64,000 bases of DNA from Eubacteriales bacterium (GCA_045538895.1 JAZQEH010000028.1:1882-65881); one strand, 5' to 3'. Positions 2,931 through 26,831 are shown, counted from the stretch's first letter. The notes: a model not told the origin generated them from the letters alone. Program-made: numbers and translations.

Positions 2931-3067
2931 ACTTCTTTCTCCAATTCGCCTTTGGCTATTATCCATTAAAATTTTGATTATACGAACATTATATCATCTA
3001 ATATTGTATATCGCAATCCGGCATATCAAAATTCTCCGTTTTGACGAAAACTTATAAGTTGTATAAT

Positions 3068-3100
3068 GTAGAAACCCCTGTCTGTGACAGGGGTTTCTAC
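3068..3100 (-). terminator. Stem-loop downstream of the zinc-ribbon operon
   Basis: 15-bp perfect stem gtagaaacccctgtc / gacaggggtttctac with a 3-nt loop, about 30 nt after the stop at 3133. The U-tract is weak. Confidence 0.5.
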
Positions 3101-3132
3101 ATTATTATTCTGTTTTCAGCCGAAAGTTTTCT

Positions 3133-3714
3133 TTATGCACTGTAGAAGTCTTCGACATACCACTTCTTGCCGTCTTTCATAAGCATAAGTATCCAGACGT
3201 CGCTATCGTCTTTCTTCTTGCCTTTGATGTCAATGCTTATAGTGAGGACCGCAAAATCCTCATCCTCATCGGCTTCCATTATCTCATATTCGTACGTCCA
3301 CTTCTTGCCAAGCTCCGACTTATATTCGTCAGCCATCTCGTCAAGGCTATCCTGAAGTCTTTTTATAAGCACGGATTTGTTTTCATATCCGTAATCTTCA
3401 AGCTTCTCTGATATGTAATCTTCGGAGAAGGTGGACACGAGTTTTTTAGCATCGGCTTCAAACATTCCTGCAAAGAAGTCTTCAACGGTATCCTCATAAC
3501 CACCACTACCACCACTGAATGCAAAAAACACAATAACAGCGATTATTGCAATGATGATAATACCAATAGGACTTTTCTTTTTTCCCTGATTTGCAGAAGA
3601 CTGTACCACAGGCGGAACGTTTGCCGCAGGTGCAGCCTCGCCTACCGGACTTCCGCACGAGTTACAAAATTTCGTACCGTCAGCAAGCTGGGCACCACAG
3701 TTTTTACAAAACAT
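3133..3714 (-). CDS. Zinc-ribbon membrane protein (N-terminal CxxC-x12-CxxC, one TM helix, extracytoplasmic domain)
   Basis: Begins MFCKNCGAQLADGTKFCNSCG, then the hydrophobic helix IGIIIIAIIAVIVFFAF. SD AAAGGAG lies upstream. Confidence 0.75.
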   Translation of the reverse strand: MFCKNCGAQLADGTKFCNSCGSPVGEAAPAANVPPVVQSSANQGKKKSPIGIIIIAIIAVIVFFAFSGGSGGYEDTVEDFFAGMFEADAKKLVSTFSEDYISEKLEDYGYENKSVLIKRLQDSLDEMADEYKSELGKKWTYEYEIMEADEDEDFAVLTISIDIKGKKKDDSDVWILMLMKDGKKWYVEDFYSA

Positions 3715-3725
3715 TTTATTCTCCT

Positions 3726-4295
3726 TTACAACTCTTTTCCGCAGTTTTCACAGTGCTTAGCGCCCTCTTTATTCTGACGTCCGCACTCGCTGCAATAAAC
3801 ATAGTTCTCTTCTTCGGTCTTTTCTTCAGCGTTAACATTTGTGCCTGAACTCGTCTTTACCGGGGTAGCACCTCGCAAAGCGGAATGAATTACCGTACTC
3901 TGAATAGTAAGTTTATCCCATGCATCCTTAAGCGAAAGCGAAATATAAAGCTGAACGCCTACGCCAATCCAGAAGCCAAGCGAGAGCCATGTAGTAATAG
4001 CATCGTCAAAGCCCGAATCTATTACCGCCATAAGCACCGCAAAAACAGCCATTAACGCAAATCCAAAGTTTTTGGCAATGGTGCCTTTTTCATAAAGCTT
4101 GTAATACTTTCTTGCTTTTTCGATGTTTGCAGGATTTGCATAATTGAGTGCCGCTACGTACTTTTCCTTTGACGGAGCAAATGCGTTCTCTTTTACATTT
4201 TTGAGTGCAGCTTGTGCTGCTGAATAATCTGCAATATCGGTATCAAGATAGAACCTTTTCAGTTCCTCATCTTTATCCATAATTCCCTTACTCAT
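3726..4295 (-). CDS. Membrane protein with C-terminal zinc ribbon
   Basis: Two predicted TM helices (FGFALMAVFAVLMAVI, WLSLGFWIGVGVQLYISL) and C-terminal CSECGRQNKEGAKHCENCG. SD AAGGAG. Confidence 0.7.
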   Translation of the reverse strand: MSKGIMDKDEELKRFYLDTDIADYSAAQAALKNVKENAFAPSKEKYVAALNYANPANIEKARKYYKLYEKGTIAKNFGFALMAVFAVLMAVIDSGFDDAITTWLSLGFWIGVGVQLYISLSLKDAWDKLTIQSTVIHSALRGATPVKTSSGTNVNAEEKTEEENYVYCSECGRQNKEGAKHCENCGKEL

Positions 4296-4306
4296 AATAT
4301 ATCTCC

Positions 4307-6310
4307 TTAACCAAGCTTATTGCCGCAAGATGGACAGAATTTAGAAGTGCCATCAACCTTTGCCCCGCACTGTGTGCAGAATGAGCCTGCGGAAGTTGTT
4401 TGCGGTGCCGCACTCGGCTTTTTGAATACCGAGAACAATCCGCCGCCCTTCTTTTCTTTAAGAGCTGCTTGCATTTTTGTAATTGCAGGATGTATTACGC
4501 TACCGTTTAAGGTAAGAGTATTATACGATTCCTTTTTACCCATATTTATGAGAGATGTAAGCATTCCGCCCTCTTTACCGTTTGCATACTTTGCCGCCGC
4601 AGTAATCTCGGTTTCGTTAAGCATTTTCAATGCCGATATGAAATAAGCCTTGGACTCAGTTCTTCCCTTTTGCCTGATGTATTCAATACTTTTACCGATA
4701 GCCGCACTGTCATAAGCATCGGTATTCATATAAAGGTTGGAAAACTCTTCAAAATCCTCTGCTTCCCAGATATCAGTAACACGCTTTTGTACACGGTCGA
4801 GATACTTTTTCTTGACCTCACTCGAAGCGTCATACTCCTCAATCTTTTTCTTAAGCTCACCGCACTCGCTTTCGCTGCTGTTGGCAAGATTCTCTAAAAG
4901 ACTGTTCAGATAATCGTTATCAATCTGGTTTATACGCTTTTGTATACGATCGAGATACTCCTTCTTAACCTCACTCGAAGCGTCATACTCCTCGATCTTT
5001 TTCTTAAGCTCACCGCACTCGCTTTTGCTGCTGTTGGCAAGGTTCTTCAAAAGACTGTTCAGATAATCGTTATCAATCTGGTTTATACGCTTGTTGAGCA
5101 ACTGCAAATACTTGCTCTTTATAGCCTTGGTAAACTCTAAATGAGTTATTTCGGTCAAAAGCTTGCCGCATGCTTCCTTATCAAGCGTACCAATGTTTCC
5201 GCAAAGCTCGTTAAGCTTTGCATCATCTTTCTCCGCCTGCGTTTTCTGCTCACGGGTTTCGTAGATTACGCCGTCATACGTTCTTGCTTCTTCATCAAAC
5301 TTTTTGATAACAACCTCAAGCTCCTGCACTCTCTCGGAGGAAGTTACATGGAAATTCTTCATCATCTCTTTGAGTTTTTCCATAAGCAAAAGTGCGTCTT
5401 CCTCGGTTCTGACTGACTTGACGTTTATAGCTGCCTTAATCTCTTTGTCGATAAGATAAGACATATCAATGCTTAAATAATTTGCTATTGCCGCAATCTC
5501 ATATTTTGCACTCGGGAAATTCTCAAAAATATAATCGTAGTACTGCTTTTTGCTTGAGTCCAGTTCGATAAGTGAAAATGCAAGGCGTTCTTTTTCCTCG
5601 GCCGGGATTCCTCTTGTGCGGTTTTCAAGAAGCGCATCAGCCTGCTTTTCACTCATGCCGCTATCCCTGTTATCAACATATTCCATAAGAAGCTTAACTT
5701 CATCTTCCTCGGTAATTGTTGAATCCGCAAGATTCTGGTATATAGCCCTCGCTTTATCGGCGTCTGCCTGATATACAAAGTCAATAGGTGCTATCGAGTT
5801 ATCGTTAAGATAATTCAGGACATAAGTGCACAGTGCCATAACGTCATTATAAAGATGCGTGTATATAACAGTGCCTTCAAATTTACTCTTTATGCGGGAA
5901 ACGAAAACGTCATCATCTATTGTGCCTTCTTCATAATCGTACAAAGCATCAACTATAAACTCATTGAAATAGTATTGTAACTGCGATACACTTCTGTCTT
6001 CATCAACTATCGCATCGTCCCAGATGTCATTATCGGACAAATCGTAAATACCGTATTTAGTAAGATACTGTCTTGCCTTAGCCACATACCGCATAACGAT
6101 TTTATCCAAATAATCAACTTCGCCAAATGAATTTAAAAACCTTTCGCAATAGGTACTATTCAAAAATACCGTGCCGAATCTTTCTTTATACTCGGCTTTC
6201 ATCTCACGCTCTGCCTGTTCTCCCATTAAACGGAAATCAGTCAGAACTTTCATGTAATTCTTTCTGCCCTCGGAAAATTCCAATTCCCTGCCTAAAAGTG
6301 TGAATTTCAT
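4307..6310 (-). CDS. 667-aa hypothetical protein with internal 51-aa tandem duplication and C-terminal zinc ribbon
   Basis: No TM helix or P-loop seen. C-terminus is FCTQCGAKVDGTSKFCPSCG. SD AGGAGGA. See the repeat at 4797-5102. Confidence 0.7.
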   Translation of the reverse strand: MKFTLLGRELEFSEGRKNYMKVLTDFRLMGEQAEREMKAEYKERFGTVFLNSTYCERFLNSFGEVDYLDKIVMRYVAKARQYLTKYGIYDLSDNDIWDDAIVDEDRSVSQLQYYFNEFIVDALYDYEEGTIDDDVFVSRIKSKFEGTVIYTHLYNDVMALCTYVLNYLNDNSIAPIDFVYQADADKARAIYQNLADSTITEEDEVKLLMEYVDNRDSGMSEKQADALLENRTRGIPAEEKERLAFSLIELDSSKKQYYDYIFENFPSAKYEIAAIANYLSIDMSYLIDKEIKAAINVKSVRTEEDALLLMEKLKEMMKNFHVTSSERVQELEVVIKKFDEEARTYDGVIYETREQKTQAEKDDAKLNELCGNIGTLDKEACGKLLTEITHLEFTKAIKSKYLQLLNKRINQIDNDYLNSLLKNLANSSKSECGELKKKIEEYDASSEVKKEYLDRIQKRINQIDNDYLNSLLENLANSSESECGELKKKIEEYDASSEVKKKYLDRVQKRVTDIWEAEDFEEFSNLYMNTDAYDSAAIGKSIEYIRQKGRTESKAYFISALKMLNETEITAAAKYANGKEGGMLTSLINMGKKESYNTLTLNGSVIHPAITKMQAALKEKKGGGLFSVFKKPSAAPQTTSAGSFCTQCGAKVDGTSKFCPSCGNKLG
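4797..5102. repeat. Two tandem copies of a 153-bp unit inside the 667-aa CDS
   Basis: tcgagatac... restarts at 4797 and 4950 (period 153 nt). It encodes RINQIDNDYLNSLL.NLANSS.SECGELKKKIEEYDASSEVKK.YLDR twice with only a few substitutions. Confidence 0.85.
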
Positions 6311-6993: not shown

Positions 6994-9174
6994 TTATTTG
7001 TAACAAGCATTTATAATATATCCACCGCATGCCGCAGAATCTTTTGATTTTATCTCCACATAGACGGTATCCCCCGCTGCAACAGAGAACGTTTTTGTAC
7101 CCGACTCCTCGTTTTCAACCCAGGTAGTGGACGTAATCGTACCGCCGTCAGGCTTGCTTAAACTAATCTCCACGGTTGCTCCTACGTCTATATTATGAAA
7201 ATCCAAAATACATTTGCCGTCTTGGTCGAATGTGTAAGCATACCAATCACTTACGGTAGTATCAAGAACTCCGCTATGCGGTGTGGAGAGGTCAAGCAAT
7301 ACCGCATTTTCCTTATTCCAACCGGCATCACAGATATGCTCTGTAACAGAAAGCAGATAGTCGCCTTTGGCACTTGTCGTATTCTCTACGGAAATCTTGA
7401 TAAAGATTTCCTGTCCCTTGTCAAGACAAACGTCTATAAAGCCGTCTTTAGTATACTCTACGGAAAAATTCTTTATTTTAATACCGTTGGCATTATATAA
7501 AGCAAGTGCAGTTCTGCCATTCACGGGATTTTCATTTATCTGCGAATCAACGTAAAAGCGGTAAATTGAGTCGTTCTCTGTCGTCATAACCTTGAACCAC
7601 TCGTTTATGCCGTCCGTTTCGATAGTTTTTATGTACTCGGTGCCAAGCTCAAGAGAAACTGCATCTTCACGTGAAATACCGCTGTCCAACTGACGCTCCT
7701 CTACAGAAAAACTGTACGGTGCAGGGGCATTACCCCAAAACTTTATCCAATAGTTTTCTTCACTTTCGGATACAAAAGATAATGAAAGTTCCTCTGTTAT
7801 TGACTGCTTATCGGCAACAACGTCATACTTTGAATTATATACGGTTACACGTTTGGAAGTGGTCATATGTGCGTAATCTTCAAAAGAAAAATCAAGCACT
7901 ACAATTCTTTTGTCCTCCACCGTCGAAAACGAATACCATTCTTCAAAGGTTACACGCTCGCCGATAGGCTCTTTACTTACATTATACGTAGTATTTGTCT
8001 GCATCTGTGTCGCTGTATCCTTTGTCGCACCTCCGGCAAAAGGCTTCGGCTCGTCCGAAACATAGGTTGTGGTTTCGACAGGCACGGTTGTTTCAACGGG
8101 TTCGGTTGTTTCCGCTGCGGTTGTTTCCACTGCGGTTGTTTCCGCAGTAGTTGTTTCTGCAGCTGTTGTTTCCGTTGCCGTTGTTTCCACTGCGGTTGTT
8201 TCCACTGCGGTTGTTTCTGCAGCGGTTGTTTCAACGGGGATAACCGGTTCATCTTCGGTGGTTGTCGAGAGAACATATTCGTTGGCAGTTGTGGTTATAG
8301 CCGCTTCTGCAACATCGCTTTCATACGGCTCTTCCTCTGCATTTGTCCTTACAAAACGGCTTGCTAAAAAAGCACCGGACACAAGTGCTGCTGCAAGCAA
8401 CACCAACGCAATCGCTTTGCGGAAAAAGGCACCACCGTGTACGTGCTCTTCCAAGGCTTTCTTCAATGCGTCTACGTTTGCGTATCTGTCCTTCGGGTCA
8501 AACTCAAGGCACTTTTTTATAATATTTTTGAGTTTTCCGCTATAAACCATTTTGTGCTCTGCCGAAAGACTCTTGCCGCTCAGCATTTTATGCATCGTAA
8601 CGCCAAGGCAGTATATATCCGTCCTCGGCTCAGACTGACCGTAACCGAAATGCTCGGGAGAGGCATATTCCTCCGTGCCGAACAAAACTGTATTCTGTCT
8701 GTTTCCTTTTTTATACGTCCTTGAAATATCGAAGTCGAAAAGCTTTACGTTTCCGTCCTCTTCAATCATAATGTTCGACGGGTTGATATCATTATGTACT
8801 ATTGGCGGCTGCATTGCATGAACCTCTTTCAACGCATTGCATACCCCTATAATAATCCTCGCCGTTTCTTTCTCCGAAAAAGTACTCTTTTCCATGATTT
8901 CTTCAACCGTTTTTCCGCATACGTTTTCTTCAAGAATATATGTGTCCCCGTTTGCGTAAACATAATCATAGACAACAACGGTATTTGGATTCCGGATTTT
9001 TTGCAAAGCCATGCAAACGGCAGTCAAATCACGCTTCTTGCAGATTCTTAAAATGCAGGAGGCCTTTTTAAGCTCATAAAAAACAATACTTATTTTTGTT
9101 TTGTCGGTTTCTTTCACGTCCTCAATATGCTTAAGTTGGGACATAAAGAACTCAAACTTTATATTATTATCCAT
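6994..9174 (-). CDS. Membrane Ser/Thr-kinase-like protein (probable pseudokinase) with Thr-rich stalk and three PPC-like extracellular repeats
   Basis: Kinase-fold motifs HNDINPSN, DFD and SPE. One TM helix (AIALVLLAAALVSGAFLA). An (ETTAx)n linker. Three repeats with the W[YF]x[FV] signature of pre-peptidase C-terminal type beta-sandwiches. Confidence 0.8.
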   Translation of the reverse strand: MDNNIKFEFFMSQLKHIEDVKETDKTKISIVFYELKKASCILRICKKRDLTAVCMALQKIRNPNTVVVYDYVYANGDTYILEENVCGKTVEEIMEKSTFSEKETARIIIGVCNALKEVHAMQPPIVHNDINPSNIMIEEDGNVKLFDFDISRTYKKGNRQNTVLFGTEEYASPEHFGYGQSEPRTDIYCLGVTMHKMLSGKSLSAEHKMVYSGKLKNIIKKCLEFDPKDRYANVDALKKALEEHVHGGAFFRKAIALVLLAAALVSGAFLASRFVRTNAEEEPYESDVAEAAITTTANEYVLSTTTEDEPVIPVETTAAETTAVETTAVETTATETTAAETTTAETTAVETTAAETTEPVETTVPVETTTYVSDEPKPFAGGATKDTATQMQTNTTYNVSKEPIGERVTFEEWYSFSTVEDKRIVVLDFSFEDYAHMTTSKRVTVYNSKYDVVADKQSITEELSLSFVSESEENYWIKFWGNAPAPYSFSVEERQLDSGISREDAVSLELGTEYIKTIETDGINEWFKVMTTENDSIYRFYVDSQINENPVNGRTALALYNANGIKIKNFSVEYTKDGFIDVCLDKGQEIFIKISVENTTSAKGDYLLSVTEHICDAGWNKENAVLLDLSTPHSGVLDTTVSDWYAYTFDQDGKCILDFHNIDVGATVEISLSKPDGGTITSTTWVENEESGTKTFSVAAGDTVYVEIKSKDSAACGGYIINACYK
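8085..8240. repeat. 15-bp in-frame tandem repeat (ETTAx) in the kinase stalk
   Basis: gcggttgtttccact-like unit iterated about 10 times. Encodes ETTAAETTAVETTAVETTATETTAAETT... Confidence 0.85.
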
Positions 9175-9642: not shown

Positions 9643-9671
9643 ATTATACGATAGAATTATACAAAAAGCAA
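9643..9671 (-). promoter_or_regulatory. Sigma-A promoter for the HTH-kinase genes
   Basis: Minus strand reads TTGCTT-17 nt-TATAAT. The -35 lies inside the descending arm and U-tract of the apbE terminator. Confidence 0.55.
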
Positions 9672-9700
9672 GCAAATGCTTTGGCATTTGCTTGCTTTTT
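9663..9700 (-). terminator. Rho-independent terminator after apbE
   Basis: 17-bp perfect stem aaaaagcaagcaaatgc / gcatttgcttgcttttt with a 4-nt loop and a T-run on the minus strand. Confidence 0.8.
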
Positions 9701-9701
9701 A

Positions 9702-10733
9702 CTATTTCAAATAACCCTCGAAGCCCTCGGAATACCTTATTTCGCCGCTTGGCAGTACCCACATAGCCTCGGTGTCGGGCAATGATTCAATCAAAGCCTT
9801 TCCCTCTTCAAAGCTAAGACAAAACAATGCGGTGGAAAGTGCATCACCGATATCGGAGCCTTGTGCAAGCACAGTAACCGAACGGAAATTCTCTCCGGGC
9901 ATAAGCGTGTCGGGGTCAATTATATGGTGGTATGCCTTGCCGTCAACATAATAATAGCGCTGATATGAGCCGCTTGTAACAATAGCCTCATTATCGGCAC
10001 CGACTATTGCAAGAAATGCATCGTCCTCTCCGGTTTTATCAGGGTTTTCGATACCCACCGACCACTTTGTACCGTCGGGGCGGGGACCGACTGCACGGAC
10101 GTTTCCGCCAACGTTAAGAAGATATCCGCTTATTCCCTCTTTTTCGAGAGCCTTTGCAACCATCTCAACCGCATAACCTTTAGCAACCGCACCCACATCA
10201 AGCTGTATACCGTCAAGCAACGTAACGGTGTTGTTTTCTTCGTCAATTACAAGCTTTTCAATATCTGTATGAAGCGAGGCCTCTTTAAGCTTATCCATAT
10301 CGGGAAGCTTTGCACTTTCAGGGTGTTTTTCACCGTGAGTACGCTCATCATGCCACAGCGAAAGCACTCTGCCCATTGCGACGTTGGTTTTACTGTCGGT
10401 TGCATAATAGGTTTCCTTTGCAAAAAGGAGCATGTCTATTATTCTTTCGTCAACTTCAATGGCACCGCTTGCACGGTTTACGGTATGCAGATTTGTGATG
10501 CCATCGTAACTGTTATAGATGTTATAAAGACGGTGATACTCGTAAAGTTGCTCACATACGTCGGTACAAACCGCATCAAATTTTTCTTTGCTTTCCGCAT
10601 ATCCGACTATCGTTGTTGCAGTATCAAAATAGTCAAAATAGTATGCCGTAAACTTTTGTTTCTCACCTTCCACATCTGCACTGCACGATGAAAAGAGGAA
10701 AAGCAAGGCAATAAAAACTAAAAATCTTTTCAT
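9702..10733 (-). CDS. apbE: FAD:protein FMN transferase (ApbE family) lipoprotein
   Basis: Lipobox LFSSC. ApbE motifs FDTATTI, GAVAKGYA, TSGSYQRYY and HHIIDPDT. Confidence 0.9.
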   Translation of the reverse strand: MKRFLVFIALLFLFSSCSADVEGEKQKFTAYYFDYFDTATTIVGYAESKEKFDAVCTDVCEQLYEYHRLYNIYNSYDGITNLHTVNRASGAIEVDERIIDMLLFAKETYYATDSKTNVAMGRVLSLWHDERTHGEKHPESAKLPDMDKLKEASLHTDIEKLVIDEENNTVTLLDGIQLDVGAVAKGYAVEMVAKALEKEGISGYLLNVGGNVRAVGPRPDGTKWSVGIENPDKTGEDDAFLAIVGADNEAIVTSGSYQRYYYVDGKAYHHIIDPDTLMPGENFRSVTVLAQGSDIGDALSTALFCLSFEEGKALIESLPDTEAMWVLPSGEIRYSEGFEGYLK

Positions 10734-10744
10734 TTTCTTTTTAG

Positions 10745-10771
10745 AAAAGGGATGCTGAACGCATCCCTTTT
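10745..10771 (-). terminator. Stem-loop between the lipoprotein gene and apbE (terminator/attenuator)
   Basis: 11-bp stem aaaagggatgc / gcatccctttt starting 5 nt after the stop at 10776. Only 11 nt remain before the apbE ATG. Confidence 0.5.
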
Positions 10772-10775
10772 TAGT

Positions 10776-11843
10776 TTATTTTGCAGCCTTAACGATTGCC
10801 GCTGCGATGTCGGCAACACCCATAGTGCAGCCTGCGGTCTGGATTTCTTCAACAGCCTGATATCCGTTAACTACGAGAGCCGCAATTTCATCAGCGGTCT
10901 TACCGAGGCATGCAGCATTGAAAGCATCTGCCTGAGCATACCACTCAAGAACCTTGCCGTCGCCGTTCAGGTCATTGCCGTATGCTGCCATACCGTAAGC
11001 ATCGCCCTTTTCAAGCTTTGTTACGATTTCAGCAGAAGTATCGGTAGCAGAAGCACCGTTTGCGTCAAATGCAAAGCTTACAGCAGCAACGTCAACTTCA
11101 CATGCGGTAACCTTGCCGTCAGCCACAGCAACACCTGCTGCGTTGATTTCAAGCTCGATTGTACCGTTTGCTTCAGCAGTTGCATCCTTTGCATCTACTG
11201 CAGTTGCAACGGAAACCTTAACGGAATCGGTTGCAGAAGCTTCACAAGCAGCTGCATTAAGAACTGCCTTTTCAACAGCCTTGATGTAGTCACCAACACC
11301 CATGGTGCAACCTGCGGTCTGAACGTCCTCTACTGCCTGATAGCCGTTAACTACAAGAGCCTTAGCTTCATCAAGCGTCTTACCAACGATTGCGTTTTCA
11401 AAAATGTCGATCTGCTCGTTCCATTCAAGAACCTTGCCGTCACCGTTGAGGTCATTACCGTATGCAGCCATACCGTAAGCGGTGCCAAGCTCAGCCTTGG
11501 TCTTGAACTCGTCTGCTACAGTAGCAACACCTGCAGAAGTATATCCTACAGAAATGTCTGCACAGTCGATATCGCACTTAAGAATCTTGCCGTTTTCGTC
11601 AATGAGAACTGCCGCAACAGTTGCGGTAACCTCACCCTTACCGTTGCTTTCGCCGTCAGCATTTGTTACTTCGCCGTAAGTGGTGTAAACACCCATACCG
11701 AAGTTAACAACGGTAGCTTCTTCTCCACCGGAAACACTGTCGGTTGTAACAACACTGCCGGTTGTTTCAGCAACATCACCGCAAGCGGTAAATGCGCAAA
11801 GTGCCATAAGCACTACAAGGATCATGCTAATAATCTTTTTCAT
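10776..11843 (-). CDS. Lipoprotein with two FMN_bind-like domains (PplA-like candidate flavoprotein)
   Basis: Lipobox AFTAC. Internal duplication: AYGMAAYGNDLNGDGKVLEW...VVNGYQAVE[DE][VI]QTAGCTMGV occurs twice. Start set to ATG 11843 after GAGGAG. Confidence 0.7.
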   Translation of the reverse strand: MKKIISMILVVLMALCAFTACGDVAETTGSVVTTDSVSGGEEATVVNFGMGVYTTYGEVTNADGESNGKGEVTATVAAVLIDENGKILKCDIDCADISVGYTSAGVATVADEFKTKAELGTAYGMAAYGNDLNGDGKVLEWNEQIDIFENAIVGKTLDEAKALVVNGYQAVEDVQTAGCTMGVGDYIKAVEKAVLNAAACEASATDSVKVSVATAVDAKDATAEANGTIELEINAAGVAVADGKVTACEVDVAAVSFAFDANGASATDTSAEIVTKLEKGDAYGMAAYGNDLNGDGKVLEWYAQADAFNAACLGKTADEIAALVVNGYQAVEEIQTAGCTMGVADIAAAIVKAAK

Positions 11844-11898
11844 AAGTTTTCTCCTCAATGAAATTTTCACCTTATTATTACATATGATATAACGTTTG

Positions 11899-12396
11899 TC
11901 AATACTTTGACAATCTTTTTATTATAAAAAACGAAGCAAGCCCGATAAAAACGCCTGCGAGAGTTCCGCTGATTGCAAGTATAAACATATAATATCCTAT
12001 TTCTACGGTTTCAAGCAGACAAATTGCAACCAAGATCTGACCGAGATTGTGCATTACTCCGCCGACAACGCTGATACCAACCGTTGAAAAGGCATTGCTC
12101 TTTTTCATCAAAGCCATTGCAAGAAGACTTAAACCCGCTCCCGCAAGGCTATATATAAAGGTTGACGGATTAAAAAGTAATGCCGAAACAGTCAGCCTTA
12201 TAAAAGAAACCGCTGCCGCACTTTTTACGCCTAAAGTATACAGTGCCAGAATTATAACTATGTTCGGCAGTCCCACCTTTATACCCGGAACTGCGGAATA
12301 TATAGGCGGAAGCAGCATTTCTACATACGAAAGTATAATTGCTGCAGTAGCGAGTACCCCTGCGTACGTTATTCTTTTTACCTTTTTATTCATCAT
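11899..12396 (-). CDS. Gx transporter family membrane protein (heptaprenyl diphosphate synthase component I-like)
   Basis: 165 aa, five hydrophobic helices. Family-typical ITYAGVLATAAIILSYVE...GLPNIVIILALY. Confidence 0.7.
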   Translation of the reverse strand: MMNKKVKRITYAGVLATAAIILSYVEMLLPPIYSAVPGIKVGLPNIVIILALYTLGVKSAAAVSFIRLTVSALLFNPSTFIYSLAGAGLSLLAMALMKKSNAFSTVGISVVGGVMHNLGQILVAICLLETVEIGYYMFILAISGTLAGVFIGLASFFIIKRLSKY

Positions 12397-12764
12397 GCCA
12401 CCATATCAATACCGCCCGTTACGGCTTTATCCGTCCTTATCGCAATCACTACACCGTTAGGAAGACAAACTATTGTTTCGCCAACCTTTGATATCGGTGC
12501 ATGGTCAACACAGATTCCGTCGGGGCAGGATGCACTTTTTACATCGGCTTTACCGTTGCTTATTACAAGTGTATTTGTACCGCCCGCAGTTTCTATAAGA
12601 TACTCCGTATCCTGTGAAAGCTGAAAACGTGCGACCTCTTTACCGTCAATCAGCACAACGGCAAAGTCACCTGACGGTTGAATTGATTTGTATAGCAGAA
12701 GTCCTGCTACCGATAGAAGTAACAGGACAACCACAAGAACAATATCGTTTCTTTTTTTTGACAT
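12393..12764 (-). CDS. NusG domain II-containing membrane-anchored protein
   Basis: N-terminal TM helix, then VVLIDGKEVARF...NTLVISNGKADVKSASCPDGICV...TIVCLPNGVVI. Start set to ATG 12764 (GAGG upstream), 2 nt after the rnfB stop. Confidence 0.7.
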   Translation of the reverse strand: MSKKRNDIVLVVVLLLLSVAGLLLYKSIQPSGDFAVVLIDGKEVARFQLSQDTEYLIETAGGTNTLVISNGKADVKSASCPDGICVDHAPISKVGETIVCLPNGVVIAIRTDKAVTGGIDMVA

Positions 12765-12765
12765 A

Positions 12766-13578
12766 TTATGCCTCAAAATTAACGTTAGTAATACAATGTA
12801 CGGGGCAGTTTTCTACGCAAGTGCCGCATGCAGTACATTTATCATAGTCGATTTTTGCAAGGTTATTTGTAACGGTAATTGCCTTTTCGGGGCAATTAAG
12901 TTCGCACTTTTTGCAAGCGATACAAGCATTTTTGCAATTCTTCCTTGCAACTGCACCCTTTTCGGGATTGTTGCAAAGCACAACCTGCTTAGAAGTAACG
13001 GGAACGAGCGTAATAACTCCCTTAGGACAAGTTTTAGCACATTTGCCGCAACCTATACAAAGTCTTGAGTCAACACGTGCAACACCGTCAACTATACAGA
13101 TAGCATCGGAGAAGCAGACGTCGGCACAATCACCGCAGCCGATACAGCCGTAGTTGCACGCATTTGCACCGCCGTAAAGCACGGTTGCCGCAAAGCATGA
13201 TTTGATACCGTCATATATAGCCTTTTTAGGTGCGGCGTCACACGTGCCGTTACAATGCACAACTGCAACGCTCTTTTCCTTGAGTTCGCCCTCAACGACT
13301 GCAACGCCTAAGATTTCCGATATCTGCTCAACAACGCCTTGAGCACCGGGAATACAGAGATTTGTTTTTACGCCGTCATTTACAAGCGCCTTTGCATAGG
13401 AATCACAGCCTGCAAAGCCGCAAGCACCGCAGTTTGCACCCGGCAGACATGCACGGATTTTACTTTCACGCTCGTCAACCTTAACCGCAAAAAAGCGGGA
13501 AGCAAGCACCAGTACAATAGCAGCGATAAGCCCAATCACCGCAACGACAAGGAGTGCTGTCAAAATATCAATAATCAT
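12766..13578 (-). CDS. rnfB: Rnf complex subunit B (polyferredoxin)
   Basis: N-terminal TM helix, CGACGFAGC cluster and several CxxCxxCxxxCP 4Fe-4S motifs. Start set to ATG 13578 after AAGGAGGG; the track extension overlaps rnfA. Confidence 0.9.
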   Translation of the reverse strand: MIIDILTALLVVAVIGLIAAIVLVLASRFFAVKVDERESKIRACLPGANCGACGFAGCDSYAKALVNDGVKTNLCIPGAQGVVEQISEILGVAVVEGELKEKSVAVVHCNGTCDAAPKKAIYDGIKSCFAATVLYGGANACNYGCIGCGDCADVCFSDAICIVDGVARVDSRLCIGCGKCAKTCPKGVITLVPVTSKQVVLCNNPEKGAVARKNCKNACIACKKCELNCPEKAITVTNNLAKIDYDKCTACGTCVENCPVHCITNVNFEA

Positions 13579-13591
13579 TTCATGCCCTCCT

Positions 13592-14191
13592 TTATGCAAA
13601 CAGATTCTCAATAATTCCGGCAAAACCGAAGAATGCAAGAGAAACGAACGATGCCGCGATAAGTGTTACGGGAAGTCCTTTAAGGCTTTCGGGAACCGCA
13701 CTTTCGTCAATGTATCTGCGGATACCCGAGAACATTACCATCGCAAGCAAGAAGCCAAGACCGCAACCGAGAGAAGAAACCATGGATTCAAGGAAGGTAT
13801 AGCCGTCATTGATATTGTTGATGGTTACACCGAGAACCGCACAGTTGGTTGTGATAAGCGGCAGATATACACCGAGGCTCTTGTGGAGTGACGGAATAAA
13901 CTTCTTGAGAAGGATTTCTACGAACTGTACAAGCGAAGCGATAACGAGGATAAATACTATCGTCTGGAGATATCCGAGCCCGTTTGCATCAAGTACAAAT
14001 TTCTGGATAGGATATGTAACGGCAGTAGCCATAAGCATAACAAAGGTTACCGCAATACCCATACCGGTTGCCTGGTCAAGTTTTTTGGAAACGCCAAGGA
14101 AGGGACAGATTCCAAGGAAGCGGCTGAGTACGTAGTTATTAACAAGTACCGAGCCCATGAGGATGATAATAAGTGACTTGAAAGTATCCAT
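13592..14191 (-). CDS. rnfA: Rnf complex subunit A
   Basis: VNNYVLSRFLGICPFLGVS signature. Six-helix membrane protein. Confidence 0.9.
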   Translation of the reverse strand: MDTFKSLIIILMGSVLVNNYVLSRFLGICPFLGVSKKLDQATGMGIAVTFVMLMATAVTYPIQKFVLDANGLGYLQTIVFILVIASLVQFVEILLKKFIPSLHKSLGVYLPLITTNCAVLGVTINNINDGYTFLESMVSSLGCGLGFLLAMVMFSGIRRYIDESAVPESLKGLPVTLIAASFVSLAFFGFAGIIENLFA

Positions 14192-14874
14192 TATTTATCC
14201 TCCTTTGCCTGTGCACAACCGCCGTGACATACAGATGCGGTGGGACAGCCTGCACATGAAAATTCTTTCTTTTTAATAATTTTACCGTGGGTAAGCTTAT
14301 TTACAACGGCAATCATAATGCCGTAAACAAGCAGACCGCCGGGTGCTTTTGTCATAATTGCAATGGGGTGAGTTGACAAAACGGGAATCGGGATACCTGC
14401 AAACGAGCCTGCACCGAGCACCTCGCGGACAGTTGCGATAGAGAGGAGTGCAAGCACAAATCCGATACCCATACCGATACCGTCAAGTGCCGACTTGCCA
14501 ACTGTGTTCTTACCTGCAAACATCTCTGCTCTGCCTAAGATTATACAGTTAACGGTGATAAGTGCAAGGTAAACGCCGAGCATTTCATAAAGGTCGGGCA
14601 GAAACGCATGCATAAACATCTCAACCATTGTTACAAAGCCTGCAATTACAACGATGTAACAAGGAATACGTACTTCATCGGGAATAAGCTTGCGGAGAAG
14701 CGAAATGAATACGTTTGAACAAATGAGAACCGCCATGGTTGCAAAGCCCATTGCGATTGCACTTATTACAGAAGTGGTAGTCGCAAGAGTGGGACAGGTG
14801 CCGAGAATGAGAACAAAAACAGGGTTCTCACGGAGAATGCCTTTAAAAAGCACCGAAAGATTATTCTGCTTCAT
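14191..14874 (-). CDS. rnfE: Rnf complex subunit E (with Cys-rich C-terminal tail)
   Basis: ENPVFVLILGTCPTLATTT signature. C-terminal tail is FSCAGCPTASVCHGGCAQ. Confidence 0.9.
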   Translation of the reverse strand: MKQNNLSVLFKGILRENPVFVLILGTCPTLATTTSVISAIAMGFATMAVLICSNVFISLLRKLIPDEVRIPCYIVVIAGFVTMVEMFMHAFLPDLYEMLGVYLALITVNCIILGRAEMFAGKNTVGKSALDGIGMGIGFVLALLSIATVREVLGAGSFAGIPIPVLSTHPIAIMTKAPGGLLVYGIMIAVVNKLTHGKIIKKKEFSCAGCPTASVCHGGCAQAKEDK

Positions 14875-16049
14875 TAATTTGCACCTCCGTTAAGAATTGT
14901 AACTGCTTCAAAGACACGTGAAATTGCTTTCATGTATCCATCCGATGTAATAGTTGCACCGCTTATCGAGTCAACCTCGGTATATGTTTCTGCGGTCTTG
15001 CCGTTATACTGCGAGTAGTATTCGGGAGCAGCACATGCATCGCCAAAACCGTCGCTTTCCTTTTGCGAAACAGTTTCGCAGGCAACGATTTTACCATCTG
15101 CAGTTACGCTTACCTTAATGTAAATGTACTCGCCGGATGCCGGATGATATTTGTTACCACCGTTGATACCGTAGCCGGCAGCTTTTACGTCAAACACATA
15201 GTTGCCGCTTGAAGTTTTGTAAGCCGCAGTAATTGCCGTGGGCATGTCGGCATATGCAGAAACGTCAATATCGGTAAGCTCCCATGAGCGGATGGTTGCA
15301 ACGGCACCTGTAGCTGCCGCTTTTTCCTCAGTGGAAGCACCTGCGCTTATAACCTTGCCGTCAGCATCAACACCAATAAAGCTTTCGCCGATGCAAACAA
15401 CGTATCCTGCTTCATTATTCGCAGAATATACAGTGTCAACTCCCTCGATTACATCAAGCATAAATACAGAAGTAAAGCCGTCAGCCGCAGGGAGGGCAGC
15501 CCCCAGATTATCTGCTAAAATCTCCTCCTCGGTACGTAGATCCACCTCTGCACCGCCGAGTGCAAGCGCAGTATTAAGAGCATCCTTTACCGCATTCTTG
15601 TATGCTTCGGTAGTCTTTGTTGCACCTGCAACAGTGTCAACTGCACCGATAGTGTCGATTGTCGAGCCTACTACGCTATCACCGTAGGTCTTTTCATAGC
15701 CGAGTGTTTCTCCGCTGGAAAGACAGGTTGCACCGGTTACGCTTCCGTTTGCGTCAATACCTACCATAATACTCATGCCGGGATTGAAGCCCACAACAGA
15801 GAGCTTTACAACCGTGCCGCCGTTTTTCTCGGTATAAGCCTCGGTAACGCTTGCGGGAAGCGTATATGCGGAAAGGTCAACAGAAGTAAAGTCTTCGCCG
15901 TCCGGCATTACAACAAGCAAAGCCTCGTTTGCAGCCTTTGCTTCATTTGCGGCTATAACAGGAGCAGTAATGCTGTTTACCGCTGCAAGCATAACCGCTA
16001 TTGCCGCACAGATAAGGGTGAGTGAAAGTATACACTTTATGTATTTCAT
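14874..16049 (-). CDS. rnfG: Rnf complex subunit G, double-length with two FMN_bind domains
   Basis: 391 aa. N-terminal TM anchor. Two flavinylation-type motifs: DTVAGATKT (Thr codon 15618-15620) and DSISGATITS (Thr codon 14952-14954). Confidence 0.85.
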   Translation of the reverse strand: MKYIKCILSLTLICAAIAVMLAAVNSITAPVIAANEAKAANEALLVVMPDGEDFTSVDLSAYTLPASVTEAYTEKNGGTVVKLSVVGFNPGMSIMVGIDANGSVTGATCLSSGETLGYEKTYGDSVVGSTIDTIGAVDTVAGATKTTEAYKNAVKDALNTALALGGAEVDLRTEEEILADNLGAALPAADGFTSVFMLDVIEGVDTVYSANNEAGYVVCIGESFIGVDADGKVISAGASTEEKAAATGAVATIRSWELTDIDVSAYADMPTAITAAYKTSSGNYVFDVKAAGYGINGGNKYHPASGEYIYIKVSVTADGKIVACETVSQKESDGFGDACAAPEYYSQYNGKTAETYTEVDSISGATITSDGYMKAISRVFEAVTILNGGAN

Positions 16050-16975
16050 TACTTGTCACCTCCGATTATCTTGCGTGATGTCCATATATCAATATACGGA
16101 GTAAGAATGTTCATAAGTAAGATTGCAAATGACACGCCCTCGGGATAATTGCCGAACATACGGATCATAACGGTGATAATACCTGCGAGGAAGCCGAAAA
16201 GGATCTGACCGCTCCACGTTGCAGGAGACGTTACGTAGTCGGTAGCCATGAAAATCGCACCGATGAAAAGACCGCCCGAAAGGGTGTAAGCAAGTGCAGT
16301 TGCCGCATTGAAGTCAACAAGCACAAACGTAAAGAGGAAAACCGTGCCGATAAACGCTACGGGGAGATGCCATGTGATGATATGGCGGATCATGAGGTAC
16401 ACACCGCCGATAATGAGTGCGAGTGTACAGGTTTCACCGATCGCACCGCCGTAGTTGCCGAAGAAAAGAGTCATAAAGTCAGGGTGTGCACCGCTTTCTG
16501 CCAGAGTAGCAAGAGGAGTCGCACTTGAAACGGTATCAACCGTAGGGAATGCGCCCTTTGCCATTTCACCGAAAGCAACAAGCATGAACACACGGCCTGT
16601 AATTGCAGGGTTTACGATATTTTTACCGATACCGCCAAAGCAGCATTTTACAACCACTATTGCAAAAACCGAGCCAACAACAGCCTGCCAGAACGGAATG
16701 TTTGCAGGAAGATTAAGAGCAAGCAAAAGTCCGGTTACAACCGCACTGAAATCGTCAATGCTCTGCTCTTTTTTGATTATTGCATTGAAAACAAACTCCG
16801 AAAAAACGCACGTGCCGATGCAGATTGCGATAACCGCAAGTGCACGAAGTCCGAAAATGATAACACCGGCTATCGCCGCAGGAAGCAGTGAGAGTGCAAC
16901 CTCCATCATAACACGTCTTGTAGAGTGAGTGCTATGAATATGCGGCGAGGCGGAAAGATGCAACAAATTATCCAT
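16049..16975 (-). CDS. rnfD: Rnf complex subunit D
   Basis: Polytopic NqrB/RnfD-like membrane protein with SPHIHS near the N-terminus and TSPAT. Start set to ATG 16975, an 8-nt overlap with rnfC. Confidence 0.9.
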   Translation of the reverse strand: MDNLLHLSASPHIHSTHSTRRVMMEVALSLLPAAIAGVIIFGLRALAVIAICIGTCVFSEFVFNAIIKKEQSIDDFSAVVTGLLLALNLPANIPFWQAVVGSVFAIVVVKCCFGGIGKNIVNPAITGRVFMLVAFGEMAKGAFPTVDTVSSATPLATLAESGAHPDFMTLFFGNYGGAIGETCTLALIIGGVYLMIRHIITWHLPVAFIGTVFLFTFVLVDFNAATALAYTLSGGLFIGAIFMATDYVTSPATWSGQILFGFLAGIITVMIRMFGNYPEGVSFAILLMNILTPYIDIWTSRKIIGGDK

Positions 16976-18287
16976 TATGCTTTGCCTCCTCTCTTGCTTT
17001 AGCGGCTTTGAGCGCTGCCTTCGCAAGCTTATGTGTCTGGATAATGGGGCGGTTTGCAGGGCAACAGAATGCACAGCAGCCGCACTCCATACAAAGGTCT
17101 ACACGAAGTTTCTTCAAGGTTTCTTCTTCGCCAAGTCGGTATGCTTCTGCAATAGCCATCGGGTCAAGTCCGAAAGGACAGCGGTTTGTACAACTGCCGC
17201 AACGGATGCAGTTTGTGACCTTTCTCGGTGCAGAGTCCTTTTCGTTAAACGCAAGAAGTGCGTTTGTGTTTTTGAGTACAGGAAGTGACAGTGACGGAAC
17301 TGTAACACCCATCATGGGACCGCCGTAAAGAACCTTGCCGGGCTTACACTTGAGTCCGCCTGCAAACTCAAACACCTCTTCGATAGAAGTGCCGATAGGA
17401 GCAATAACGTTGCAGGGCTTGTTTATTGCACTGCCGTCAACGGTGATAAGTCGCTCAACAAGCGGTATGCCCGTCTTTAAATACTTACCGATTGCCGCAA
17501 CGGTGGAACAGTTAATAACGATACATCCAACGTCAATGGGAAGCTTGCCGCCGGGGACAACCTTTCTTGTAACGTGATAAATCATCACCTTTTCGCCGCC
17601 CTGAGGGTACCTTGCAGGAAGCACCTTTACGCTGACACCGCTATGCTTTGCGGCAATTTCCTGCATTTTGGAAATTGCTTCTTTTTTGTTGTTCTCAATA
17701 CCGAAAATTATCTTTTTAACGCCCAAATACTTTTCAAATGCCTCTATTGCACATTCGATATCGTCGCTGTATTCAAGCATAGCACGTGTATCGCTTGTGA
17801 TGTAAGGCTCACATTCGGCGGCATTGATGATAAGCTCCTCAATACGCTCGCTTTCTACGTTAAGCTTTACATAGGTAGGAAAGCCTGCGCCGCCAAGTCC
17901 TACTATACCGCTCTTTTTTACCGCCTCGATAAAGCTGTCACGGTCGGTAACGGCGGGAGGTGTGCAAGACTCGTCAAGAGTCATTTCTCCGTCGGATTCA
18001 ATGGTGATTGCAGGTGCGGCAGAGCCGTTTGCAACGCCTAACGGTTCAATCTTTTTTACAGTTCCCGAAACGGTTGCATAAACGGGTGAGGACACATATC
18101 CATTCTGCTCGGCGATAAGAGTACCTATATTTACATGGTCACCAACCTTGACAATCGGTGTTGCGGGAGCACCGATGTGCATAGAGGTCGGCAATGTCAC
18201 TGATTTTGGAGCATCCATTCTGACAGCCGCTATTTCTGCGGTATTCTTTCTGTGCGGAACATGGATACTGCGGAGGTTAAAAGCCAT
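16968..18287 (-). CDS. rnfC: Rnf complex subunit C
   Basis: GLGGAGFPT NADH/FMN-site motif and two C-terminal 4Fe-4S motifs (CIRCGSCTNRCP, CMECGCCAFCCP). Confidence 0.92.
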   Translation of the reverse strand: MAFNLRSIHVPHRKNTAEIAAVRMDAPKSVTLPTSMHIGAPATPIVKVGDHVNIGTLIAEQNGYVSSPVYATVSGTVKKIEPLGVANGSAAPAITIESDGEMTLDESCTPPAVTDRDSFIEAVKKSGIVGLGGAGFPTYVKLNVESERIEELIINAAECEPYITSDTRAMLEYSDDIECAIEAFEKYLGVKKIIFGIENNKKEAISKMQEIAAKHSGVSVKVLPARYPQGGEKVMIYHVTRKVVPGGKLPIDVGCIVINCSTVAAIGKYLKTGIPLVERLITVDGSAINKPCNVIAPIGTSIEEVFEFAGGLKCKPGKVLYGGPMMGVTVPSLSLPVLKNTNALLAFNEKDSAPRKVTNCIRCGSCTNRCPFGLDPMAIAEAYRLGEEETLKKLRVDLCMECGCCAFCCPANRPIIQTHKLAKAALKAAKAREEAKHNG

Positions 18288-18381: not shown

Positions 18382-18410
18382 AATATATACCTTTTTCGAC
18401 ATAAAGTCAA
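18382..18410 (-). promoter_or_regulatory. Sigma-A promoter of the rnf operon
   Basis: Minus strand reads TTGACT-17 nt-TATATT. A leader of roughly 100 nt, containing the hairpin aaactttgt/acaaagttt, precedes the SD AAAGGTGG. Confidence 0.55.
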
Positions 18411-18454: not shown

Positions 18455-18495
18455 TGAAAAAACAGAATAAAGTCCTCGGAACGAGGACTTTATTC
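18455..18495 (-). terminator. Rho-independent terminator after the PBP-LuxR regulator gene
   Basis: 14-bp stem gaataaagtcctcg / cgaggactttattc immediately after the stop at 18496, followed on the minus strand by TGTTTTTTC. Confidence 0.75.
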
Positions 18496-19650
18496 TTAAA
18501 TAAAGATATTCTTGTTTTTTTCTTCGTTTTCATTTATTACCGACAAAAGGCTTTCCTTTTTAATATAGCCACGGATAAGCTCGGCGGCATTGCCTTTTTT
18601 AGGCATTGCAAGAGCGTTTTTTATCTTTCTCACCCTATACCTTGCGGTTTCCGGAGAAATAAAGCAATATTCACTCATTTTTTCGTAATTATAGCCGCAT
18701 ATAAGGCAATAAATAAGCTTCAGATTTACAAGGTCGCTTGTTGCAAGCATACGTTCGAGCCTGCCAATGTCGCCGGTTTGTACGAGGATAGGCTTCTCCT
18801 CTCCCTGCAGAAGCGGAATAAAGGGCTTCGGGCTGCCACAGTTGGCGTCATATGCCATATTTGCGGTGCTTCCCCTTATCTTCAGCGTGGTCGGCAACAG
18901 GTTTTCAGACGCCACAAGCCCATACTTTATACGGTTGAAATACGTTTCAACAAGCAATCTGCCGCAATCGTAAAAGTTAGTTGTAACCGAGGTTATTCCC
19001 TCTCCGTAAAGTCTTGCCATAACGGTATCGGTATGGCTTATAACAAAAAGCTTATTGCTTTCGATTTTGTGGGACTTCAAATACTCTATAAGGCATATTG
19101 CAACAAGGTCGTTTGTGCATATAACGGCATCGAACTGTTCATGTACACTTATAAATTCATCAAATGAATCAAGCATGCTCTCATTGATATAAAAAATGCT
19201 ATCGTGACCGTCATTAACGTATTTACAGAACATCTTTTCTCGACCTGTGTCATTACAGGAGTTACGGTTCACGCCTACAAGTGCAATTCTTTCCTTTTTG
19301 CACATACGAAGATAGTCAACGGTATTTTTCATCGAACCGTCCGCATCGGTGCCGACAAGACTGTACGTAACTGGCAACGGCTGCACAATATGGTTAGCAG
19401 AAAGTATGAAATGAACGTTTGTATCCAAAAGTCCGTTTATCGCTTCATAAAGCCATGACATATTATCGTATAGAAGAATAACAGATGCTTCTTCACCGCA
19501 CTTTTCAACTGCGGCTCTTGCCTCCGAAATGCTTGTAAAAACCTTTGTACGGATACGTCTGCGAGAAGCCTCGTCCGCAATTCCGCGAAGCTTAGTGTCA
19601 CACCAGACACCGTGACGGTATGCGGCATCGCACAAAACAAACAGTGCCAT
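18496..19650 (-). CDS. Transcription regulator: LacI-type sugar-binding (PBP) domain with C-terminal LuxR-type HTH
   Basis: AVICTNDLVAI and ISHTD are PBP type-1 features. C-terminal LIYCLICGYNYEKMSEYCFISPETARYRVRKI is a LuxR/sigma-70 region-4-like HTH. Divergent from the giant gene. Confidence 0.6.
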   Translation of the reverse strand: MALFVLCDAAYRHGVWCDTKLRGIADEASRRRIRTKVFTSISEARAAVEKCGEEASVILLYDNMSWLYEAINGLLDTNVHFILSANHIVQPLPVTYSLVGTDADGSMKNTVDYLRMCKKERIALVGVNRNSCNDTGREKMFCKYVNDGHDSIFYINESMLDSFDEFISVHEQFDAVICTNDLVAICLIEYLKSHKIESNKLFVISHTDTVMARLYGEGITSVTTNFYDCGRLLVETYFNRIKYGLVASENLLPTTLKIRGSTANMAYDANCGSPKPFIPLLQGEEKPILVQTGDIGRLERMLATSDLVNLKLIYCLICGYNYEKMSEYCFISPETARYRVRKIKNALAMPKKGNAAELIRGYIKKESLLSVINENEEKNKNIFI

Positions 19651-26778: not shown

Positions 26779-26789
26779 TACGATTCAAG

Positions 26790-26825
26790 AATTATGCGGC
26801 GGAATACCGCCGCATAATTTATCAA
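26790..26825 (+). terminator. Stem-loop terminator after the giant gene
   Basis: 13-bp perfect stem aattatgcggcgg / ccgccgcataatt with a 4-nt loop, followed by TTTATC. It ends about 10 nt before the next ATG. Confidence 0.65.
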
Positions 26826-26831
26826 AGAAAT

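Follow-up and report, generated by a model that had tools for sequence, protein, structure and literature searches.

In an uncultured gut bacterium belonging to the order Oscillospirales, the Rnf operon contains, between eetB and apbE, a gene for a lipoprotein of 355 amino acids (aa) built from two copies of a unit that is, judged by profile searches, a divergent relative of the FMN-binding domain (FMN, flavin mononucleotide). The operon was analyzed within a window, the whole 64-kb stretch of Eubacteriales bacterium DNA (64,000 nucleotides (nt); GCA_045538895.1 JAZQEH010000028.1:1882-65881), in which the genes from rnf to apbE all lie on the minus strand and make up a ten-gene Rnf unit. On balance we lean slightly towards a reading in which ApbE flavinylates the lipoprotein, which would then carry electrons away from Rnf beside a doubled RnfG. 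An earlier note, made from the sequence alone, had placed four genes directly after rnfB, encoding a NusG_II protein, a Gx transporter-family protein, a lipoprotein and ApbE, and all four are found there. The gene order is rnfCDGEAB, the NusG_II gene (eetA), the PF07456 gene (eetB), the lipoprotein gene and apbE, as follows (ORF, open reading frame; FAD, flavin adenine dinucleotide; ECF, energy-coupling factor):

16968-18287, minus strand: rnfC, ORF; part of rnfCDGEAB (12766-18287)
16049-16975, minus strand: rnfD, ORF
14874-16049, minus strand: rnfG, 391 aa, ORF with Pfam and NCBIfam matches; two FMN_bind stretches, E 8.6e-25
14191-14874, minus strand: rnfE, ORF
13592-14191, minus strand: rnfA, ORF
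12766-13578, minus strand: rnfB, ORF with Pfam and NCBIfam matches
12393-12764, minus strand: eetA, single-pass membrane protein with a NusG_II domain (PF07009, E 3.2e-29)
11899-12396, minus strand: eetB, ECF-S-like FAD-export subunit ("Gx transporter"; PF07456, E 1.2e-34)
10776-11843, minus strand: lipoprotein gene, 355 aa with two FMN-bind2-like domains, from ORF and homologues; lipobox Cys21 codon 11781-11783
11244-11714, minus strand: lipoprotein domain 1, residues 44-200, motif A177-G-C179-T180, Thr codon 11304-11306
10779-11243, minus strand: lipoprotein domain 2, residues 201-355, motif A337-G-C339-T340, Thr codon 10824-10826
9702-10733, minus strand: apbE, FAD:protein FMN transferase, a lipoprotein with its own lipobox (PF02424, E 4.2e-67)

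The lipoprotein gene has the hallmarks of a genuine gene with an internal duplication. Its ATG is preceded by GAGGAG, and the lipobox Cys is residue 21. The two halves are 53% identical across 139 aligned residues, a comparison of one half-profile with the other gave an hhalign E-value of 6.6e-56, and both halves end in VVNGYQAVE[DE][VI]QTAGCTMGV, the strings around the TAGCT motifs being LVVNGYQAVEDVQTAGCTMGVGD and LVVNGYQAVEEIQTAGCTMGVAD. The two-copy lipoprotein of 355 aa and its two Thr codons are thus exactly where the earlier note had put them. We found 524 close homologues, all labeled "hypothetical" and all from uncultured Clostridia, within a family of 1,697 cluster representatives at E<=1e-3, and in a 40-sequence alignment the A-G-C-T is invariant in both repeats; given these numbers, neither the repeat nor its motif can be put down to chance. 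A plus-strand ORF of 369 aa (10752-11861) runs antisense to the entire Ala/Gly/Thr-rich lipoprotein gene. We rejected it as a gene and regard it as a shadow, since its Cys-rich translation makes no sense and the minus-strand gene has hundreds of homologues. AlphaFold2 modeled the full lipoprotein with a mean predicted local distance difference test (pLDDT) score of 88.4 and a predicted template modeling (pTM) score of 0.84, and domain 2 on its own with a pLDDT of 95.8. In these models each domain consists of three strands of 13-16 residues followed by approximately five helices.

The relationship of the repeat to the FMN-binding domain became visible with increasingly broad family profiles. 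A full-length family profile searched against the PDB returned one chain, 2KZX, at E 0.084, a single-domain profile returned 2KZX at E 0.0057, and a profile of 42 diverse family domains returned 2KZX as its sole match at E 6.7e-8 and 35.8 bits. In all three alignments the Y-x-M..YG and E-W-x-E-Q elements were matched and AGCT lay over SGAT. The chain 2KZX is an uncharacterized FMN_bind protein of 131 aa, solved by nuclear magnetic resonance (NMR), that shares Y-x-M..YG, E-W-x-E-Q and [SA]-G-[AC]-T-I with the lipoprotein family, and its aligned portion scores 25.2 bits on Pfam FMN_bind, for which the cut-off is 22. It differs from the lipoprotein in having one short domain and a canonical SGAT, and only its helical C-terminal half is matched. 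In addition, a family member whose repeat unit reads D-x-x-S-G-C-T (P0264) scores 21.9 bits on FMN_bind, against the same cut-off. From the in-register profile match to 2KZX and the near-threshold score of this relative we conclude that the lipoprotein repeat is, at the level of sequence profiles, a divergent relative of the FMN-binding domain, at least in its C-terminal half. Two bridging searches, with the P0264 repeat unit and with the 2KZX fragment, returned two and three proteins, respectively, with no gain. Pfam searches with ten divergent multi-domain members gave no FMN_bind match on the repeat, the only match being to a separate N-terminal domain in P0221.

In connection with flavin attachment, we surveyed the motif in 569 domain instances from 269 family proteins. 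AGCT is present in 421 of the 569, followed by ASVT (18), SGCT (13) and SSVT (12); ASCS, ASCT, TGCT and ADCT also occur, and SGAT and SSAT were each seen a single time. One protein (P0146) reads DLASGAT, which is the canonical D-x-x-S-G-A-T at the motif position. Throughout the survey the motif ends in Thr or Ser with hardly an exception, preceded by Cys, Val, Ala, Thr or Ile. This is the pattern expected if the Thr were the flavin attachment site and the position before it needed only a small side chain. According to a review of mutagenesis work, replacing the Thr by Ala abolishes flavinylation, replacing the Asp by Ala has a minor effect, and a Gly-to-Ala or Ala-to-Val change leaves approximately 50% (PMC12052999), a tolerance that agrees with the Thr as the site and with a loose preceding residue. 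The earlier proposal that the Thr of AGCT occupies the position of the flavinylated Thr is supported, both by the superposition of AGCT on the SGAT of 2KZX and by the canonical motif in relatives. We infer a covalent flavin at this Thr, and consider it quite probable that the lipoprotein is a covalent flavoprotein.

The Cys next to this Thr had also been pointed out before. In the Rnf-linked clade its conservation equals that of the Thr, since it is present in every motif of 81 distinct orthologue sequences with identities to the window protein down to approximately 41%. The observation does not extend to the family in general, because other branches have Val or Ala there; with such variants in existence, one of them rnf-linked, we rejected the idea that the Cys is required family-wide. 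An invariant Cys179/Cys339 pair in a non-canonical motif, along with the CGPS-containing thioredoxin-like domain fused to one relative, would also suit a protein that had lost its flavin chemistry and acted in thiol-disulfide exchange, or held a metal or cluster site at the domain interface. We find this scarcely credible. Branches with Val, Ala, Thr or Ile at the Cys position nevertheless keep the Thr or Ser, and these include rnf- and apbE-linked ones. An Fe-S cluster would need more than two Cys per protein, and the tight apbE linkage would be left unexplained. A further suggestion retains the flavin and makes the invariant Cys catalytic, as part of a flavin-thiol pair, a C4a-thiol adduct or a second covalent flavin link, so that the lipoprotein would be a new extracytoplasmic flavo-thiol center passing Rnf electrons to thiols, flavins or oxygen outside. 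We regard this as quite unlikely; if it were true, it would amount to a previously unrecognized electron exit in quinone-free gut Clostridia.

The arrangement in the window is not a peculiarity of one genome. In a genome scan with one genome per species, 354 stretches encode relatives of the lipoprotein, and synteny was counted in the best 80 of these 354, all of which come from uncultured gut Oscillospirales (Acutalibacteraceae, Oscillospiraceae, Candidatus Faeciplasma, Flemingiibacterium and Fimenecus). The genes rnfB-eetA-eetB lie directly upstream of the lipoprotein gene in 73 of the 74 loci with enough upstream sequence (72 by the criteria of the script, plus L010, whose eetA-eetB gap is zero), and in the remaining locus (L048) the rnfB-eetA-eetB block is adjacent but divergent. 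Downstream, apbE follows directly in 72 of the 74 loci with enough sequence on that side. The order rnfCDGEAB is common to 70+ related loci, and the genes flanking the ten-gene block vary between the loci inspected.

The RnfG encoded in the unit is itself doubled, with predicted flavinylated residues Thr144 (AGAT, codon 15618-15620) and Thr366 (SGAT, codon 14952-14954). RnfG orthologues in the related loci are 333-472 aa long and mostly have two [STA]GAT motifs. For RnfD, the predicted site read from the sequence is:

16517-16519, minus strand: codon of RnfD Thr153, motif V-S-S-A-T

This motif has Ser where Gly is usual, and 43 of 67 RnfD orthologues give no match to [STA]G[AC][ST]. In general, ApbE in this clade may be less strict about its target motif.

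The regular association with rnf and with a doubled RnfG is open to a different explanation, namely that the lipoprotein is a flavinylated internal accessory of this clade's Rnf, docked on the doubled RnfG, which tunes or buffers the flow between ferredoxin and nicotinamide adenine dinucleotide (NAD+) and provides no electron exit. The fixed place of the gene after rnfB-eetA-eetB would be consistent with this, as would the lack of an acceptor or reductase gene nearby. We nevertheless consider it unlikely, as the solved Rnf complexes need no such subunit (PMC12174285), related Oscillospirales manage without it (see below), and family members also occur in the absence of rnf, beside apbE alone or in clusters of several FMN_bind genes. 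The relatives outside rnf operons keep their link to flavinylation, either through adjacency to apbE or through fusion to FMN_bind domains. Fusions of the module to canonical FMN_bind domains are found in P0215, P0221 and P0237, the last with three canonical domains ahead of the module, and one FMN_bind-module fusion protein is directly followed by apbE. By eye, the canonical domains of P0215 and P0237 resemble RnfG domain 1, which suggests that RnfG-type and module-type flavin domains may work side by side. One 7-kb contig (L089), on which we found no rnf genes, carries three consecutive FMN_bind genes at 1237-5727, encoding proteins of 503 aa (FMN_bind and module), 571 aa (FMN_bind and FKBP_C) and 391 aa. 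A distant four-domain relative with SGAT and SSVT motifs (X) sits in a locus of the order eetA-eetB-X-apbE-rnfCDG, in which RnfG is a single-domain protein of 177 aa. Finally, P0258 (L088, 8001-9872) joins the module to a Big_2 domain as well as to a thioredoxin/AhpC-like domain, whose active site reads W-C-G-P-S with one Cys; apbE lies 3.6 kb from this gene, next to rubredoxin and flavodiiron genes, all within 2-5 kb downstream. A fusion to a redoxin domain speaks against an accessory dedicated to Rnf, and hints that some family members may have an extracytoplasmic thiol- or peroxide-reducing role.

The genes on either side of the lipoprotein gene are well known in this context. PF07009 and PF07456 correspond to EetA and EetB in Data Set S1 of Rivera-Lugo et al. 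(2023; PMC9973259), and that study shows EetB to be the substrate-binding part of the ECF-type FAD exporter that the ApbE homologue FmnB requires for flavinylation (PMC9973259). In the same work, eetB adjoins eetA in 3,328 genomes, apbE in 2,169 and, within Clostridia, rnf in 572. Like the rnf-eetA-eetB-apbE clusters of Clostridia, the present locus has its PF07009, PF07456 and PF02424 genes within five genes of rnfB. EetA, EetB and ApbE after rnfB are therefore an already-known arrangement serving the flavinylation of RnfG and RnfD. The extension of the Rnf operon by NusG_II and Gx genes, presented earlier as a feature of this locus, is real in that the genes are present, but they are EetA and EetB, whose clustering with rnf has been published, which leaves the lipoprotein gene as the only unusual one. 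The published rnf-eetAB-apbE model contains no extra flavoprotein, whereas here the lipoprotein is inserted between eetB and apbE.

This position, together with the part that EetA and EetB play in flavin trafficking, would also accord with a flavin-handling protein that carries no electrons and instead holds FAD or FMN on the outside between EetB and ApbE, or scavenges flavins. ECF-type transporters are not known to use separate binding proteins. The homology of the domain to an FMN_bind protein and the FMN-receiving Thr or Ser kept in nearly all family domains also argue against mere handling, and the fusions are to electron-carrying FMN_bind and redoxin domains. Taken together, we judge a handling role to be very unlikely.

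That the lipoprotein gene and apbE belong to the same unit as rnf is consistent with the spacing of the genes. The gap between the rnfB stop and eetA is 1 nt, the eetA stop codon overlaps the eetB start codon, and the spacers are 55 nt between eetB and the lipoprotein gene and 42 nt between the lipoprotein gene and apbE. A fold scan found no hairpin or terminator at the rnfB-eetA junction. The signals found in and around the unit were:

18464-18496, minus strand: terminator of the gene preceding rnfC
18382-18410, minus strand: promoter-like site upstream of rnfC, just past that terminator; consensus matches only
11874-11902, minus strand: sigma-70-like site, TTGACA, 17 nt, TG-n-AATAAT; 11 of 12 consensus matches
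10744-10772, minus strand: stem-loop in the lipoprotein-apbE spacer, 11-bp G+C-rich stem followed by a T-run; -17.2 kcal/mol, z -6.35
9663-9701, minus strand: intrinsic terminator 3' of apbE, 18-bp stem followed by UUUUUGU; -24.6 kcal/mol, z -7.5

A transcription unit ending at rnfB, which would have undermined the earlier proposal, was rejected because of the 1-nt gap, the junction free of hairpins and the strong terminator that comes only past apbE; the gene spacing fits a single transcription unit predicted to run beyond rnfB. The hairpin between the lipoprotein gene and apbE is shared with the related loci. All 75 of the 75 orthologous spacers fold at -15.7 kcal/mol or better (loci L007-L086), and a hairpin with a T-run was present in 25 of 25 spacers inspected by sequence, with stems that differ in sequence. 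It is probably a conserved leaky terminator or attenuator that would hold ApbE below the levels of the structural genes. The sigma-70-like site at 11874-11902, which overlaps the end of eetB and lies 30 nt upstream of the lipoprotein ATG, could be an internal promoter; in our promoter scan sigma-70-like sites were no commoner than in shuffled sequence, so that this site is weak evidence.

A number of results weigh against the reading of the lipoprotein as an ApbE substrate that carries electrons away from Rnf. Starting with the domain, the repeats gave no match to Pfam FMN_bind (PF04205) at E<=10, the entire lipoprotein gave no Pfam match at E<=0.1, and NCBIfam returned nothing relevant for the whole protein or for either half. 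A sequence search of the PDB with the lipoprotein as single query returned chance matches only. Foldseek searches of the PDB with the full and single-domain models found no FMN_bind structure and nothing significant; 3O6U, the reference structure, ranks no better than E 1.0, and the weak matches of the full model include several class I chains of the major histocompatibility complex (MHC), which have a sheet platform and helices. Aligning the lipoprotein halves to the RnfG domains of the same clade with hhalign gave probabilities of 6-19%, with the motif in register and with RnfG alignments of low diversity. The match to 2KZX is limited to the C-terminal approximately 70 residues of the domain. 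The earlier statement that the repeats align to FMN_bind thus stands by way of the broad profile and 2KZX, but not by direct comparison with Pfam or by Foldseek. The motif itself departs from D-x-x-[ST]-G-A-[ST] at -6 (Val or Ile for Asp), -3 (Ala) and -1 (Cys), with the canonical Thr and Gly kept in register. At the level of the locus, the lipoprotein gene and apbE have a terminator-like hairpin between them, and apbE is non-adjacent in three related loci (L006, L053 and L073). Other Oscillospirales in the PMC9973259 data set carry apbE-eetA-eetB-rnfC and have no such lipoprotein, from which it follows that Rnf does not need it. Among the scanned genes of the window we found neither the ECF-T and ATPase components on which Listeria EetB depends, several ORFs at approximately 30.5-45.7 kb being outside the scan, nor any nearby gene for an acceptor, a reductase or a partner that spans the cell wall.

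Among described proteins, the anatomy of the lipoprotein most resembles FMN-bind2, a rarer subtype of FMN-binding domain of approximately 160 aa that often occurs in two or four copies (Huang, Méheust, Barquera, and Light, 2024; PMC11334425). According to structure models in that paper, a lengthened beta1-beta3 sheet pairs with that of the neighboring domain to give a pseudo-symmetric two-flavin unit. FMN-bind2 was found by BLAST and has no InterPro identifier, its reference proteins being NTW96865.1 and WP_312031774.1 (PMC11334425). Similarly, the lipoprotein domains are 155-157 aa long, have long strands of 13-16 residues and lack a Pfam match, and the copy number in the 269 family proteins is two in 249, four in 11, six in 2 and odd in 7. 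The family thus fits FMN-bind2 in its described anatomy. The FMN-bind2 paper mentions neither a linkage to rnf nor a Cys-containing motif (PMC11334425), and in the literature searched we found no use of the term beyond it.

The earlier note had compared the locus with the PplA/FmnB system of Listeria. The parallel holds for the layout, in that the Listeria monocytogenes PplA/FmnB/EetA/EetB locus likewise combines a lipoprotein with two sites (predicted in our case) with an ApbE-type transferase, EetA and EetB. It does not hold for the input, which in the PplA system is Ndh2 and demethylmenaquinone (DmkA, DmkB) and here is Rnf, as that note had itself stated; indeed, we found no Ndh2, dmkA, dmkB or quinone genes at the locus or among the scanned genes of the window. 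The motifs also differ, [ST]GAT in the PplA system versus AGCT here, and the lipoprotein domain has no Pfam FMN_bind match. Because the Ndh2/demethylmenaquinone input is missing and the comparison with PplA is one of layout, we do not file the lipoprotein as a member of the PplA system. An earlier survey found cad/pplA-apbE pairs only in genomes without rnf (PMC7074142); in function, if not by family, the present clade runs counter to this. Multi-flavinylated RnfG was proposed by Méheust et al. (2021; PMC8238504) as a second electron route to extracytosolic acceptors. RnfG is doubled here too, and the difference lies in a separate lipoprotein in the operon, with two predicted flavins. A further comparison is offered by MmcA, a multihaem cytochrome encoded in the rnf operon of Methanosarcina acetivorans that takes Rnf electrons to membrane or extracellular acceptors (PMC12174285). 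MmcA is likewise an extra electron carrier of the outer face encoded with rnf, but it carries haem instead of flavin, is an unrelated protein and is archaeal. In summary, the rnf-eetAB-apbE cluster, FMN-bind2 and the doubled RnfG are each known singly; the novelty consists in all three being combined, as a fixed set, within a single operon of many gut species, and in the Cys motif.

Put together with what is known of the protein families, the following sequence of events is plausible. RnfCDGEAB would act as a ferredoxin:NAD+ ion pump, while EetB with EetA would export FAD. ApbE, itself predicted to be a lipoprotein, would transfer FMN from the exported FAD to Thr residues on the membrane's outer face, at five predicted sites (RnfD Thr153, RnfG Thr144 and Thr366, and lipoprotein Thr180 and Thr340). 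The lipoprotein would consist of paired, divergent FMN-bind2-type domains whose long three-stranded sheets pack together into a membrane-tethered two-flavin unit, with the Thr of A-G-C-T as the attachment site and the Cys filling the small-residue position before it. As to the direction of electron flow and the acceptor, we infer that electrons would pass from Rnf via the extra FMN domain of RnfG to the lipoprotein flavins, and from there to an acceptor outside the membrane, which might be free flavins, iron, oxygen, thiols or a separate reductase. For a quinone-free fermenter such a route would provide a sink for ferredoxin and NADH electrons. Our confidence that the lipoprotein is an electron exit is tentative and falls a little short of an even chance.

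Several other features of the window lie outside the Rnf unit or concern details of its products. The N-terminus of ApbE reads MKRFLVFIALLFLFSSC. A 726-aa Ser/Thr protein kinase encoded at 6994-9174 (minus strand) has one membrane-spanning segment followed by imperfect T-T-A-x-E-T-T repeats (approximately 8000-8300), which create several long shadow ORFs on both strands. Three consecutive genes at 3133-6310 (minus strand) encode products with zinc-ribbon ends, and the 667-aa zinc-ribbon protein has a near-exact internal duplication of approximately 55 residues (…INQIDNDYLNSLL.NLANSS.SECGELKKKIEEYDASSEVKK…). At 19816-28988 (plus strand) lies the gene for a 2,320-aa protein with a GDSL lipase, a VanY peptidase and a C-terminal dockerin, and after it one for a VanY protein of 718 aa. 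The dockerin suggests an organism of the cellulosome type.

Many gut Clostridia have neither quinones nor cytochromes, and some of them still pass electrons outside. The lipoprotein, fixed in the rnf operon beside a doubled RnfG in many uncultured Oscillospirales species, is a testable candidate for such an electron exit, and would be a flavin counterpart of MmcA. Its motif, AGCT, would add to the range of sequences that ApbE is known to target. Lastly, the family to which it belongs (1,697 cluster representatives) has no Pfam model and is missed by domain libraries, so that surveys of flavinylation based on Pfam FMN_bind would undercount the substrates of ApbE.

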